A stretch of 64,000 nt of DNA. It comes from Acidobacteriota bacterium (GTDB lineage Bacteria; Acidobacteriota; Thermoanaerobaculia; Gp7-AA8). Positions 41,610 to 49,392 of the stretch are shown one piece after another. Positions within the stretch are counted from its first letter, which is position 1; each line of letters starts with the position of its first letter. Position numbers and translations under genes: made by a program. Location of the stretch: positions 6,116 to 70,115 of the forward strand of contig JACPDH010000080.1 of the NCBI GenBank assembly GCA_016184115.1. The letters are read 5' to 3'. The notes beneath the pieces were generated by a model, which was not told the origin of the DNA, searched no databases, and worked only from the letters and a program-made list of their open reading frames with translations.

Positions 41610-43361
41610 ATGCCTATGACGATTTCCTCAACAAACACGAATCCGGATCGCGGCTCTCTCAACAACTCGCGCCAATTCGACGTGCTGCGTTCCGCTGTCA
41701 GACCTCGACGCACGCTGAGTCTTCCGGCAGTCATCGCGATCGCCTCACTCTGGTTCGTCGTCGCATGCAATGCGCCGTTCTGGCGCGATGCGATCGCAGC
41801 ACGCGGTGGCGTCTCGCTCGCAAACCTCTCCTTCTTCGCGTCGCTCTTCCTCTTCACGCTCATCCTCACGAACCTTCTGCTCACGCTGCTCGCTCCGCGA
41901 CCCATCGCCAAAGCGATGCTCGGCTTCTTCTTCGCCGTGACGCCGATCCTCACCTACTTCATGGCGACGCACGGTGTTCTGATCGACGGGACGATGATTC
42001 GCAATACGTTCGAGACCGATCCAGGCGAGGCAGGCGAGCTGATCACGCCGAGGATGCTGGGCTACCTCGCTCTCCTCGGACTTCCTCCTCTTGCCTGGCT
42101 CACCTGGATTCGCCTCGAGACGCGAACGTTCCGGGCAGGACTCGCGAGTCTCGGCTTGATGTTCGCGGGAACTTTTGCGGGAGTCGGGGCGATCGCCGCG
42201 CTGCACTACCAGGACTACGCGTCATTCCTGCGCAACCATCGCGAGCTGCGCTACCGGCTCGCACCTCTGAACTTCGTCTCGTCGATATTCATGTACTCGA
42301 AAGAGTCGTTGCGCACGCCGCGCGAGCTGCGCGCGATCGGAACCGACGCACACCAGCATCTCGCTCCCGCGGGATCGAGGCGCAACAGGCTCGTCGTGAT
42401 CGTCGTCGGCGAGACGGCACGCGCAGCGAATTTCTCGCTCGGCGGCTACGCCCGGCAGACGAACCCGGAGCTCGCGAGCCGTAACGTTGTCTACTTCTCT
42501 GACGTTGAAGCCTGCTCGACATCGACCGCAAATTCGTTGCCGTGCATGTTCTCGAGCCTCGGAAGCGCACACTTCGACCAGTCGACCGCGCGAAGCCAGG
42601 AGAACCTCCTCGACGTGCTCGAGCACGCCGGGGTCTCCGTCCTATGGCGCGAGAACAACTCCGGCTGCAAGGGGATTTGTGATCGCGTCGAGACCGAAGT
42701 GCTCTCCCATCTTCGGCAACCCGGCGTCTGCAGCGACGAGGAGTGCTTCGACGAGATCCTCCTCGGCGACCTCCAGCAGCGGATCGACCGGATGCAGAGC
42801 GACATGGTCATCGTTCTCCATCAGAAGGGAAGCCACGGCCCCGGCTATCACCTTCGCTACCCTGCCCGGTTCAAGGTGTTTACGCCGACATGCGAGACGA
42901 ACTCGCTCGAACAGTGCAGCGCGGTCGAGATCGCGAACGCATACGACAACACGATTCGTTACACCGACCACATCCTCGCGCAAACGATCGACCTGCTCGA
43001 GAGGAACGCGGCGTCGCGAGACACCGCGATGCTCTATGTTTCCGACCACGGTGAGTCGCTCGGCGAGAAAGGCGTCTACCTTCACGGCATACCGCCGTTC
43101 TTCGCGCCCGACACCCAGACGCATGTGCCGATGATCGTCTGGCTCTCGGAGGGCTTCGCGCGCAATGGCATCGTAGACCGCGCGCGGCTCGACCGATCGC
43201 GTGGCGCGAGGTTGTCGCACGACAACCTGTTCCACTCGGTGCTGGGGCTGCTCGACATCGATACGAGCGTCTATCAGTCGCAGCTCGACGTCTTCCGCGC
43301 GGCCCGACCGGTAGCGGCGACGATTCACGCGAGCGCGCGGCCCCACGAAGGGCGATCGTGA
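41610..43361 (+). CDS. Phosphoethanolamine transferase (EptA/OpgE family). It has an N-terminal 5-TM domain plus a sulfatase (alkaline-phosphatase superfamily) domain.
   Basis: TM region, then VVIVVGETARAANFSLGGY, …CSTSTANSLPCMFS… and …YVSDHGESLGE…. Confidence 0.8.
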   Translation: MPMTISSTNTNPDRGSLNNSRQFDVLRSAVRPRRTLSLPAVIAIASLWFVVACNAPFWRDAIAARGGVSLANLSFFASLFLFTLILTNLLLTLLAPRPIAKAMLGFFFAVTPILTYFMATHGVLIDGTMIRNTFETDPGEAGELITPRMLGYLALLGLPPLAWLTWIRLETRTFRAGLASLGLMFAGTFAGVGAIAALHYQDYASFLRNHRELRYRLAPLNFVSSIFMYSKESLRTPRELRAIGTDAHQHLAPAGSRRNRLVVIVVGETARAANFSLGGYARQTNPELASRNVVYFSDVEACSTSTANSLPCMFSSLGSAHFDQSTARSQENLLDVLEHAGVSVLWRENNSGCKGICDRVETEVLSHLRQPGVCSDEECFDEILLGDLQQRIDRMQSDMVIVLHQKGSHGPGYHLRYPARFKVFTPTCETNSLEQCSAVEIANAYDNTIRYTDHILAQTIDLLERNAASRDTAMLYVSDHGESLGEKGVYLHGIPPFFAPDTQTHVPMIVWLSEGFARNGIVDRARLDRSRGARLSHDNLFHSVLGLLDIDTSVYQSQLDVFRAARPVAATIHASARPHEGRS

Positions 43362-43410
43362 TCTATCTCCGCGTTCGTTAGGCGCAGAACGCGACGCCCT
43401 CCGTCGCAGC
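43362..43410. terminator. Hairpin cgcgttc-N10-gaacgcg between the convergent eptA-like and Omp85-like genes.
   Basis: ccgcgttcgttaggcgcagaacgcgacg. Confidence 0.4.
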
Positions 43411-47385: not shown

Positions 47386-47436
47386 AACGCGCGTGCGGTT
47401 ACCGTTCCGGTTGCGCGGCAGGACGCAGCACGCATC

Positions 47437-49392
47437 TCACCGATACTGCCTCCTCGAGAAGACGAGGAAGGCGCTCTCGTACGCCGCGGTCGCGCGGTCG
47501 ATGAGTGCGGAATCGGGCGCCAGCAGGAACTGCGAGTCCGCGCGCCGGTCGTATCGGAACACCGCCGACGACCTCTGCAGGCCTAACACCGCGAGTCGAT
47601 CGCCCACCAGCATTCCGACGTCGTGATTGTGGCTCACGAAGATCGGCCGGTCGGGGTCGGGATGCGCAAGGACGTCGCGGCCGTAGAACGGTGCGGAGTA
47701 CGGGATACCGAGAAGCCCCAGCATCGTCGGCGCCACGTCAATCTGACTCGATGGCACCGAGAGCACGCCCGGTTCGACTCCGGAACCGAAGATGACCACC
47801 GGAATGCGATAACTCGGAAGCGGGATCTCTCCGTGTCCGTAGACGCGCGACCCGTGGTCGCCGAGGACGACGAAAACGGTATTGCCATACCAGGAGTGGT
47901 GCGACGCTTCGCGCATGAACTCGCCGAGCGCGAAGTCCGCGTATCGGACGCCTGCCTTGCGCCCGCCCCCCTCGGCCGGCACACCCGGCACGCCTTCGCG
48001 AAAGGTGAATGGTTTATGGTTCGAGGTCGTCAGGATCAGCGAGAAGAAGGGGCGGCGTTCGGCCGCCCGCGCGTCGAAGTAGTCGACCGCGTGGGCGAAG
48101 AGATCCTCGTCGCTGACTCCCCAGATGTTCGAGAACTTCGCGTTTTCGATCTCCGCCCGATCGCTGACCGCAAACCCGTTCGACGCGAAGAAGTGGTTCA
48201 TGTTGTCGAACGTGCCGTAGCCCCCGTAAAGGAAGCTCGTGTGATATCCGGCCAGCTGCATGACCTGGCCCCAGTTCGCGATGTTCTCGCTTCCGGGTCG
48301 CTTGACGATCGAGCGCGACGGGATCGGCGGAAGCGAAGTAATTACTGCCTCGAGGCCGCGGACCGTCCTCGTGCCGGTCGCCCACGCACTCGTCCAGACG
48401 ATTCCGTTCGCGGCAATACGGTCGAGGTTAGGCGTCAATCCACCCTTGCCGCCGCAAACTCCGGCATGCTCGCATCCGAGCGATTCCTCGAGAATGACTA
48501 CCACATTGCGCCCGGCAAGCGACGACCGCGAAGCGGCGTGATCGCGACGCAGATCGCTGGCAGCGCGGCCAGACCACTGCACCCCCGGCTCGAGGAGATC
48601 GTTCCGCACGATCGCGAATGCCCGACGCTCGGGAAGCATTCGATAGTAGTCGGAGTAACTCAGGTCATTCGTGCGAAGAGCCTCGACGAACGATGCGACG
48701 CCGTTGTAACTCATCTGGTCGGCACGCGGTTCGTGCATCGCGAGTATGTCGAGTGGGACGAGCGCGGGAAGTGCAACCGCGAGAGTCACGTGGATCGCCA
48801 GGAACGAAAACCGTCGCGCTCCCGACGCCGGCGCCTCGAGATCGGTCGTCAGCGCGCCCCGGAGAACGAACAGCGCCACCGCCGTCGCGACTCCAGTGAG
48901 CGCCAGGACCCTCCCCACCGGATACGATTCCCAGATGTTGACCATCACCTCCGTCGGCGACATGAGGTAGTCGACCGCCACGAGATTCAACCGCGACGAG
49001 AACTCGTCGAAGAAGTAGTACTCGATGAACGAGAGGTAGAGGCGTCCGAATACCGATGCCGCCACGAGCAGCACGACGACGAACCGCCCGGGAAGGCTCG
49101 CCCTCACTCGAGGAGGCAGAATGAACAGTGCCGTGGCGACCGGCAGCAGCATCGCCGGTAGAACGACGAGATCGTTGAGCAGGCCGCGCACGAGAATCGA
49201 GCCAAGCTCCAGCGTCGGCACGTCCACCCTCGATCCGAAGGCAAAGACGAGCACGACGCGAAGCAGTGCGTCCATCGCGAGGGAAATCGCGCCAAGCGCC
49301 AGTGGAATTCGCAGGGGAAACGCCTTGGCTACCGCGCCGGTCGAGCCCATCCGCGGCTCGCGTTCATTCTCGAAATGCTCGTTCACGCTCAT
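47437..49392 (-). CDS. LTA-synthase/sulfatase-family membrane protein (phosphoglycerol/phosphoethanolamine-transferase-like, MdoB/OpgB type).
   Basis: N-terminal 5-TM domain plus an extracytoplasmic sulfatase domain (VVILEESLG…, …TTSNHKPF…, …VLGDHGSR…). Confidence 0.75.
   Translation of the reverse strand: MSVNEHFENEREPRMGSTGAVAKAFPLRIPLALGAISLAMDALLRVVLVFAFGSRVDVPTLELGSILVRGLLNDLVVLPAMLLPVATALFILPPRVRASLPGRFVVVLLVAASVFGRLYLSFIEYYFFDEFSSRLNLVAVDYLMSPTEVMVNIWESYPVGRVLALTGVATAVALFVLRGALTTDLEAPASGARRFSFLAIHVTLAVALPALVPLDILAMHEPRADQMSYNGVASFVEALRTNDLSYSDYYRMLPERRAFAIVRNDLLEPGVQWSGRAASDLRRDHAASRSSLAGRNVVVILEESLGCEHAGVCGGKGGLTPNLDRIAANGIVWTSAWATGTRTVRGLEAVITSLPPIPSRSIVKRPGSENIANWGQVMQLAGYHTSFLYGGYGTFDNMNHFFASNGFAVSDRAEIENAKFSNIWGVSDEDLFAHAVDYFDARAAERRPFFSLILTTSNHKPFTFREGVPGVPAEGGGRKAGVRYADFALGEFMREASHHSWYGNTVFVVLGDHGSRVYGHGEIPLPSYRIPVVIFGSGVEPGVLSVPSSQIDVAPTMLGLLGIPYSAPFYGRDVLAHPDPDRPIFVSHNHDVGMLVGDRLAVLGLQRSSAVFRYDRRADSQFLLAPDSALIDRATAAYESAFLVFSRRQYR

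Follow-up and report, generated by a model that had tools for sequence, protein, structure and literature searches.

The 64-kb stretch of Acidobacteriota DNA analysed here (contig JACPDH010000080.1; hereafter the window, meaning the whole stretch at its full length) carries, on its minus strand, a tight series of genes for an LtaS-like sulfatase-domain membrane protein, an OmpR-family response regulator and a sensor histidine kinase, followed by a gene for an outer-membrane protein of the Omp85 family, a convergent eptA gene and, divergent from the latter, genes for a C92-like secreted protein and a GT28 lipid glycosyltransferase (Table 1). Close relatives of the source genome are Thermoanaerobaculia. 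The gene map was obtained from a mechanical listing of open reading frames (ORFs) passed through a filter on GC content at third codon positions (GC3), which was fitted to DNA of 64% GC (the GC3 of the genes is 0.75–0.81), and domains were called with Pfam and NCBIfam at curated cut-offs. A first-pass annotation, made from the letters of the sequence, had described the locus as a regulated envelope-modification island resembling pmrCAB. All the genes that it named are present where it had placed them according to the ORF listing, GC3 and the Pfam/NCBIfam models, and its description of the gene layout is correct because these models back each assignment and because the overlap and gap between genes agree. 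It had overlooked the Omp85-family gene of 554 aa that fills the space between the kinase gene and eptA.

The transferase-regulator-kinase order does resemble that of pmrC-pmrA-pmrB, as had been proposed. The regulator and kinase genes overlap by the expected 4 nt (46696-46699), and the space between the transferase and regulator genes, previously given as 52 bp, is 51 nt with a TTG start or 69 nt with a GTG start at 47367, the latter being more likely since it is preceded by GGAGG and is also the start used in public gene calls. The same LtaS-like/regulator/kinase arrangement is found on two independent public contigs. A terminator scan detected no terminator-like site in the transferase-regulator or regulator-kinase junctions, and a scan for the sigma-70 consensus gave no promoter-like match in the intergenic gaps; in a genome this rich in GC, both scans are uninformative.

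Near-palindromic sequences similar to the CusR/HprR/CopR box were spotted while reading the upstream regions, and the consensus of that box was then confirmed independently and searched through the window. Allowing up to two mismatches, the pattern ATTACA-N4-TGTAAT occurs exactly three times in the whole 64 kb against 0.09 sites expected by shuffling, and all three sites fall in the relevant upstream regions, before the LtaS-like operon, the Omp85-like gene and eptA. The presence of three boxes matched to the regulator and kept in relatives bears out the earlier idea of a regulated envelope-remodelling unit. The consensus was borne out by the hprR-hiuH spacer of E. coli, where CATTACAAAATTGTAATG is found. 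Published sites are ATTACATnnATGTAAT for CusR, CTGACAn5GTAAT for Pseudomonas aeruginosa CopR and ATGACAAnnTTGTCAT for E. coli CusR, and the box consensus also matches published CzcR sites (PMC11195947). The box upstream of the LtaS-like operon agrees with the P. aeruginosa CopR consensus at 10 of the 11 specified bases. By comparison, YTTAAK-N5-YTTAAK, the direct-repeat consensus of the PmrA box, is absent from the 64 kb at up to two mismatches, with 3.6 sites expected. The first-pass annotation had proposed a promoter search for PmrA/CusR-like boxes; the CusR type is thus found at three sites and the PmrA direct repeat at none in the window. An Rfam scan of the whole window returned no RNA family, and therefore no known riboswitch in the long 5' region of the LtaS-like gene.

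Conservation of the boxes was followed in related loci (given below as L numbers). Orthologous LtaS-like genes with 68-72% identity, in L083, L085, L093 and L094, are preceded by a near-identical box (ATGACAGCGACGTAAT or ATGACACGCACGTAAT), which forms an island of identity in an alignment of three such upstream regions, the sequence 5' of the box not being conserved; no TCS (two-component system) was present within the 10-kb flanks read for L083 and L085. Boxes also precede eptA in L087 (ATTACATCCCCGTAAT) and in L095 (ATTACAGGCTTGTAAT, a perfect match). A GTCAY motif follows the box by 6 nt at two of the window sites (49515-49519 and 45103-45107) and in L083, L085, L093, L094 and L061; standing in an 11-bp register with YGTAAT, it resembles a third half-site, which would point to an operator of mixed inverted and direct repeats. 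In seven of nine promoters, a -10-like hexamer (TACNGT, TATAAT, TAGAGT or TAAGGT) lies exactly 33 nt past the box. The window has TACCGT and TACAGT at this place, the relatives have TACGGT, TACAGT, TAGAGT and TAAGGT, and eptA of L087 is preceded by TACCGT, the background frequency of TACNGT being 2.3e-4 per position; the exceptions are eptA of L095, with TACCTT at 32 nt, and eptA of the window, which has no such hexamer. With a spacing of 32-33 nt allowed, eight of ten cases have a -10-like hexamer. The low-GC Geobacteraceae locus L061 independently shows this architecture in the order regulator (TIGR01387, 330 bits), kinase, ATAACACAAATGTCAT, 33 nt, TATAAT, LtaS-like gene and EptA gene. This box-to-hexamer geometry places the centre of the box near -53, the usual position of activating OmpR-family sites.

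Table 1. Coordinates of genes and predicted operators in the window and of Y_phosphatase2-family genes in related loci.
Feature	Position	Strand	Remarks
LtaS-like sulfatase-domain membrane protein	47437-49392	-	651 aa, first gene of operon; Pfam Sulfatase 138 bits
OmpR-family response regulator	46696-47385	-	likely start GTG 47367; TIGR01387 passed
Sensor histidine kinase	45239-46699	-	two transmembrane (TM) helices, periplasmic domain of ~140 aa, HAMP, HisKA, HATPase; TIGR01386 passed
Single-POTRA Omp85-family outer-membrane protein	43411-45075	-	554 aa; likely start ATG 45066; Pfam Omp85
EptA-family lipid A phosphoethanolamine transferase (predicted)	41610-43361	+	EptA_B_N + Sulfatase; NF028537
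Secreted C92/YiiX-like permuted papain-fold protein	39849-41501	-	likely start TTG 41384; Pfam Peptidase_C92 57.9 bits
GT28 / MGDG-synthase-like lipid glycosyltransferase	38710-40011	-	likely start ATG 39837; MGDG_synth 89.8 bits, Glyco_tran_28_C
Predicted CopR/CusR-type operator ATGACAGCCGCGTAAT	49525-49540	-	upstream of LtaS-like operon; GTCAC 6 nt on; TACCGT (49491-49486) 33 nt on
Predicted CopR/CusR-type operator ATTACAAAGCTGAAAT	45113-45128	-	upstream of Omp85-like gene; GTCAT 6 nt on; TACAGT (45079-45074) 33 nt on
Predicted CopR/CusR-type operator ATTACATCTTCGTAAT	41482-41497	.	divergent region between eptA and C92 gene
Y_phosphatase2-family (atypical dual-specificity/PTP-like) genes	L085 11887-12489; L087 8038-8619; L093 2271-2873; L094 2176-2760; L095 4183-4770		

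The TCS is, on the evidence of curated models, of the CusRS/CopRS/HprRS lineage and not PmrAB. The regulator passes the model of the heavy-metal (CusR/CopR/HprR) subfamily, TIGR01387, with 288.8 bits against a cut-off of 279.2, and the kinase passes TIGR01386 with 345.6 bits against 292.55, whereas the PmrA and PmrB models both fail (178.8 bits against 330, and 110.3 against 314). The regulator shares 49% identity with E. coli HprR over its full length (247.5 bits), including an identical recognition-helix stretch, VDVAIRRLR. The kinase aligns to CusS and HprS solely from the HAMP domain onward, at 34% identity, and its PDB matches at E <= 0.001 cover cytoplasmic kinase regions only, the best being HprS 9EPN; no sensor-domain structure was among them. 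A second TCS (49881-51658, plus strand), whose HisKA_3 kinase has several TM segments at its N-terminus and whose regulator is NarL/MadR-like, is divergent from the LtaS-like gene over a 488-bp spacer.

The periplasmic domain of the kinase (about residues 38-180) has only 20 detectable relatives in 1.84 billion representative proteins. Alignment with these relatives, CusS and HprS showed that an E75-x-x-E78 motif, kept in 9 of 10 relatives, is part of a glutamate ladder (E72-E75-E78-E81-E84) in a conserved acidic helix, (D/E)xEExEE(L/I)xE(I/V), which is accompanied by a PFP motif. The Met/His-rich insertion of CusS is absent from this alignment, which is weak in that part so that single ligands may remain; the sensor domain has no BLAST similarity to CusS, and the alignment with HprS likewise starts at HAMP. 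Within its first 200 residues the kinase has no Cys and a single internal Met, and a redox-sensitive residue is therefore unlikely, which argues against HprS-like sensing. A Pfam scan of 40 of the window's predicted proteins revealed no metal-efflux, CopA or multicopper-oxidase gene product, nor any adjacent target of the MsrPQ type. ExxE is a metal-binding determinant in PmrB, ColS, RaxH, VgrS and BqsS (PMC8306577). By analogy with PmrB and ColS, the sequence suggests that the kinase senses excess metal cations (Fe3+, Zn2+ or Al3+-like) or another cationic insult, and a signal sensed by a non-CusS mechanism would accord with the ExxE helix and with the lack of a CusS insertion, of Cys in the N-terminal part and of efflux genes among the scanned proteins; metal binding by the helix is putative. 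The possibility of a CusS-type sensor with copper efflux, which the first-pass annotation had set against its own proposal, is half borne out, in that the lineage is that of CusRS/CopRS/HprRS but neither the Met/His insertion nor, among the scanned proteins of the window, efflux genes were found.

The first gene of the operon does not encode an EptA; the likeness to pmrCAB holds for gene order and the ExxE motif of the sensor, but not for PmrAB identity or for the first gene as EptA. Pfam detected Sulfatase as the sole domain of its product, without EptA_B_N, and NCBIfam gave weak matches to LtaS and OpgB, far below their cut-offs (56.2 bits against 970 for the LtaS equivalog NF053595). The best sequence match in the PDB is 3LXQ, Vibrio parahaemolyticus VP1736 (252 bits, 34% identity). 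An AlphaFold2 (AF2) model (pLDDT 85) comprises five TM helices and an alkaline-phosphatase-fold domain, with TMt values of 0.91 to 3LXQ and about 0.7 to LtaP/LtaS, followed by PbgA/YejM, MCR-1 being more distant. The expected metal and nucleophile set (E303, T341/T343, H459 and D512/H513) is invariant in 18 homologues, and the protein is predicted to be an intact, periplasm-facing phospho-headgroup transferase of the VP1736 (3LXQ) family. A family-specific motif, RFNLVAVDY...NIWESYP, lies between TM3 and TM4, and the HGNxxxFWNR segment of LtaS aligns with YGGYGTFDNM, an invariant FDNMN motif standing there in place of the Trp and Arg ligands of glycerol phosphate. The family is large, with more than 2,000 clusters at E<=1e-10, the best 120 of which are full-length with 44-100% identity, and it extends over Acidobacteriota, Desulfobacterota, Gamma- and Betaproteobacteria, Bacteroidota, Campylobacterota, Nitrospirota and Sporomusaceae. 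In the library searched, no paper was found for VP1736 or for 'LtaS-like' together with lipopolysaccharide (LPS), and only papers on YejM, BcsG and MCR were returned for LtaS homologues in Gram-negative bacteria. CrdR of Helicobacter pylori is the CopR/CusR-like regulator of that species. HP0578, a possible member of the LtaS-like family annotated as 'LTA synthase family protein', is listed as differentially expressed in a crdR mutant of H. pylori (-2.34, P<=0.001; PMC9927306).

Clustering of the neighbours of LtaS-like genes at 82 non-redundant loci recovered an OmpR-type regulator at 27, a kinase at 28, a PAP2 phosphatase at 18, an Omp85-like gene at 10 and EptA at 6. Adjacent regulators of CopR type occur in the window, L061 and L087; those of Lysobacterales, a Betaproteobacterium and Bacteroidota are PmrA/QseB-like, and some others are ambiguous; in Steroidobacteraceae, the LtaS-like gene lies beside an ECF-sigma/FecR/TonB-receptor set. 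In other phyla a CopR-type box was found beside the LtaS-like gene at L061 only, the other TCS-bearing loci having no such box, so the link to CopR is lineage-specific and the general link to a TCS broad. In L085, L087, L093, L094 and L095 a Y_phosphatase2 gene overlaps the stop codon of the LtaS-like gene by 4 nt, a position taken in the window by the regulator and kinase genes; a homology search found no homologues of the relatives' Y_phosphatase2, ArnT-like, PAP2 or GT1-like genes in the window. The fullest sets are those of L087, with EptA, ArnT-like, LtaS-like, phosphatase and Omp85-like genes and a TCS, and L095, with a TCS, LtaS-like, phosphatase and EptA genes. Metal-responsive TCSs are associated with eptA-lpxE-arnT clusters in the ColRS and RaxHR systems (PMC8306577, PMC4074579). 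Since the partners of the LtaS-like enzyme are of the same kinds as in these clusters, it can be placed by analogy, with moderate confidence, in LPS/lipid A-type remodelling. A GT1-type lipid glycosyltransferase gene (PF03033/UDPGT) is divergent from the LtaS-like orthologue of L083 (8481-9758), with the box between them, and another lies near an Omp85-like homologue in L090 (12300-13598); the two occurrences hint at a recurring glycolipid link. PilZ genes are found near the LtaS-like orthologues of L085 and L093, and a gene for a PilZ-domain protein (37977-38693, plus strand) adjoins the GT28 gene of the window.

The Omp85-like protein exceeds the cut-off of Pfam Omp85 PF01103 (32.4 bits against 24), and its AF2 model (pLDDT 86, pTM 0.81) shows one POTRA domain and a beta-barrel. 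Its best PDB matches by Foldseek (probability 1.0) are TamA and BamA at 12-15% identity, and the equivalog models of BamA, TamA and TamL score far below their cut-offs. Homologues with about 31-35% identity occur in the flanks of LtaS-like genes at nine loci besides L087, directly adjacent in eight, and eight of these nine loci form a single homology cluster with L087 and the window in the neighbour analysis. The association spans two phyla, the Omp85-like gene lying inside the LtaS-like operon in L087 and adjoining LtaS-like genes in Steroidobacteraceae. An obligate pairing of the two families was considered and rejected, as homologues in L090-L092 lie near acyltransferase, LptFG and housekeeping genes. 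In the window, the gene has its own box and -10-like hexamer, and the predicted transcription start at about 45067 coincides with the A of ATG 45066, the codon from which NCBI's 551-aa product begins, so that the mRNA of the gene may be leaderless.

The product of 41610-43361 is an EptA-family protein and a predicted lipid A phosphoethanolamine transferase, in agreement with the original claim of a genuine EptA on the other strand: it contains EptA_B_N and Sulfatase domains and scores 587 bits against a cut-off of 500 for NF028537, the score for the strict E. coli EptA equivalog being 560 against 660. The GT28 and C92-like neighbours of eptA are likewise supported by Pfam. The C92 gene most probably starts at TTG 41384, which has GAGG 8 nt upstream and a signal-peptide-like sequence after it, and which leaves the box at 41482-41497 intergenic. 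The likely GT28 start lies 11 nt after the C92 stop codon, and the best NCBIfam match of the GT28 protein is diglucosyl-diacylglycerol synthase (210 bits against a cut-off of 500). Membership of the C92 and GT28 genes in the regulon is uncertain. Elsewhere in the window, a homogentisate cluster (14468-19290, plus strand) encodes an HPPD-like dioxygenase, homogentisate 1,2-dioxygenase and fumarylacetoacetase; two Ser/Thr protein kinases of 791 and 678 aa are encoded at 4426-6801 and 9117-11153 (plus strand); and two large ORFs, of 966 aa at 33288-36188 (minus strand) and of 456 aa at 36220-37590 (plus strand), resemble coding DNA in their GC3 and gave no match to Pfam at E<=1e-5.

Taken together, we consider it probable (at roughly 0.7) that the locus constitutes a single envelope-remodelling regulon under a TCS of the CusRS/CopRS/HprRS lineage, with a logic like that of pmrCAB and ColRS built from different parts. 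The kinase would sense metal cations or a cationic insult through the ExxE helix and not through Met/His ligands of the CusS type. The phosphorylated regulator would then bind the near-palindrome ATKACA-N4-YGWAAT, whose centre lies about 53 bp before the transcription start, and activate its own operon, headed by the LtaS-like transferase, together with the Omp85-like gene, eptA and possibly the divergent C92-GT28 pair. The TCS would be autoregulated, since the operon preceded by the LtaS-like box is its own. EptA would add phosphoethanolamine to lipid A phosphates, the LtaS-like enzyme may transfer a phospholipid-derived phospho-alcohol to lipid A, LPS or some other glycoconjugate of the envelope, and the Omp85-like protein may work at the outer membrane in the same response. 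What the analysis shows are the identities and families of the genes, the operator sites with their conservation, and the neighbourhoods; activation rather than repression, the signal, and what the LtaS-like and Omp85-like proteins act on are inferred.

Several points weigh against this regulon. The support comes from sequence analysis and structure models, and the host is an uncultured metagenome-assembled genome. The eptA box of the window has no -10-like hexamer at the conserved spacing, and the geometry of that promoter therefore differs from the others. Relatives of the Omp85-like protein with 42-58% identity occur in unrelated contexts, making the link to LtaS-like genes recurrent and not obligate. 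The Trp and Arg residues that bind glycerol phosphate in LtaS are not conserved in the alignment with the LtaS-like enzyme, which leaves its donor head group as putative as its acceptor. The TCS family is named for heavy-metal sensing, and copper stays a candidate signal.

That last point leads to the alternative of a conventional CusRS/CopRS/CzcRS-type system for copper/silver (or zinc/cadmium) homeostasis, having its main targets elsewhere and the envelope genes as side targets or by coincidence. It would agree with the scores of both heavy-metal models and with the CopR/CusR-type operator, in particular the 10/11 agreement at the LtaS-like box. It is nevertheless unlikely, as the sensor has no detectable similarity to that of CusS or HprS and no CusS-type insertion, the scanned proteins of the 64 kb include no efflux, CopA or multicopper-oxidase product, and all three boxes of the window serve envelope genes and are kept at orthologous envelope genes in relatives. 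A second alternative, which bears on the role of the enzyme only and which we regard as comparably improbable, is that LPS is not what the LtaS-like transferase acts on. The enzyme might modify glucans of the periplasm, as OpgB does, or it might attach glycerol phosphate, as a decoration or as a polymer, to a glycolipid supplied by the GT28 enzyme; the latter would be a pathway resembling that of lipoteichoic acid (LTA) in a diderm, with the GT28 enzyme recycling diacylglycerol. LtaP and LtaS are indeed the nearest characterised folds, the weak NCBIfam matches are to LtaS and OpgB, the best match of the GT28 protein is an LTA-anchor enzyme, and a lipid glycosyltransferase gene is divergent from the L083 orthologue with the box between. 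The models of LtaS, OpgB and UgtP all score far below their cut-offs, however, the glycerol-phosphate ligands of LtaS are replaced, no opgGH genes were seen, and the genes that recur nearby (EptA, PAP2 and ArnT-like) are of the lipid A-remodelling type.

Sensing of oxidants (H2O2/HOCl) as by HprRS, in control of envelope repair or protection, is very unlikely. HprR and the cytoplasmic domain of HprS are the best relatives of the two proteins, and a methionine sulfoxide reductase gene is located at 30625-31305; against this, the window scan found no box near that gene, the sensor domain is unrelated to that of HprS, and the content of Cys (none) and internal Met (one) in the N-terminal 200 residues of the kinase makes a redox-sensitive residue unlikely. 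A true pmrCAB orthologue, with PmrA/PmrB and a PmrC-like first gene acting through PmrA boxes, is the least probable of all: gene order, tight spacing, the nearby EptA and the ExxE motif would fit, but it is largely refuted by the profile scores, which fall short for PmrA and PmrB and pass for the heavy-metal models, and disfavoured by a first gene nearest to 3LXQ and LtaS and by the lack of PmrA boxes in the window.

The proposed envelope regulon thus combines features of several known systems. With PmrAB-PmrC of Enterobacteria and Acinetobacter (pmrCAB/basRS-eptA) it shares an operon in which a membrane transferase of the alkaline-phosphatase superfamily precedes an OmpR-family regulator and its kinase, EptA as an output, a periplasmic ExxE in the sensor and a predicted autoregulated remodelling of charge; it differs in the subfamily of the TCS (CusR/CopR/HprR), in an operator that is near-palindromic and not the PmrA direct repeat, in a first gene of the VP1736 type with eptA as a separate convergent unit, and in the inclusion of an Omp85-like gene. 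ColRS of Pseudomonas and RaxHR of Xanthomonas likewise place an ExxE-type TCS beside lipid A remodelling genes (PMC8306577, PMC4074579), and the related loci L087 and L095 join a TCS with EptA and a phosphatase, L087 also with an ArnT-like gene. The TCS subfamily and operator are different, the phosphatase of the close relatives is Y_phosphatase2 and not PAP2/LpxE, and the ColRS/RaxHR clusters, as described, are without LtaS-like and Omp85-like components. The resemblance to CusRS/CopRS/HprRS covers the TIGR01386 and TIGR01387 models, the recognition helix, the operator ATKACA-N4-TGTMAT, the box centre at about -53 and predicted autoregulation, whereas the sensor shows no sequence relationship to theirs and is without the ligand insertion of CusS, and the predicted targets are envelope-modifying genes instead of efflux pumps, oxidases or MsrPQ. 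Among the enzymes, VP1736 (a structural-genomics entry) has the same catalytic fold with its metal and nucleophile residues kept, and LtaS and PbgA/YejM have the same plan of five TM helices and an extracytoplasmic domain; LtaS differs by its equivalog score and by its Trp/Arg glycerol-phosphate ligands, which are replaced by the invariant FDNMN in the alignment. TamA and BamA, of the Omp85 superfamily, share the POTRA and beta-barrel fold with the Omp85-like protein, which differs from them in its single POTRA domain, low identity, TCS-type operator upstream and homologues beside LtaS-like genes.

Decoration of lipid A under two-component control underlies resistance to polymyxin and cationic peptides as well as metal tolerance, and it has been worked out almost only in Proteobacteria, in systems such as PmrAB, PhoPQ and ColRS. 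The locus suggests that the same logic evolved in Acidobacteria from another regulator lineage, and it gives a testable operator and promoter architecture for an uncultured group. With identities of about 45-50% across phyla, the VP1736-type transferases may also, in a broader view that we advance tentatively and at rather less than even odds, represent a class of outer-membrane remodelling enzymes under signal control that is widespread in diderms and has gone unrecognised. They would add a phospho-substituent to lipid A, LPS or another envelope lipid; a dedicated phosphatase (PAP2 or Y_phosphatase2) would work with them, joined in some lineages by an Omp85 partner with a single POTRA domain, and in Acidobacteria of the Thermoanaerobaculia type the module, together with EptA, would have come under a CopR/CusR-lineage regulator with a new ExxE sensor. 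For two large uncharacterised families, the LtaS-like transferases of the 3LXQ type and the single-POTRA Omp85 clade, the shared operators and recurrent neighbourhoods that tie them to EptA and lipid phosphatases provide a functional lead.

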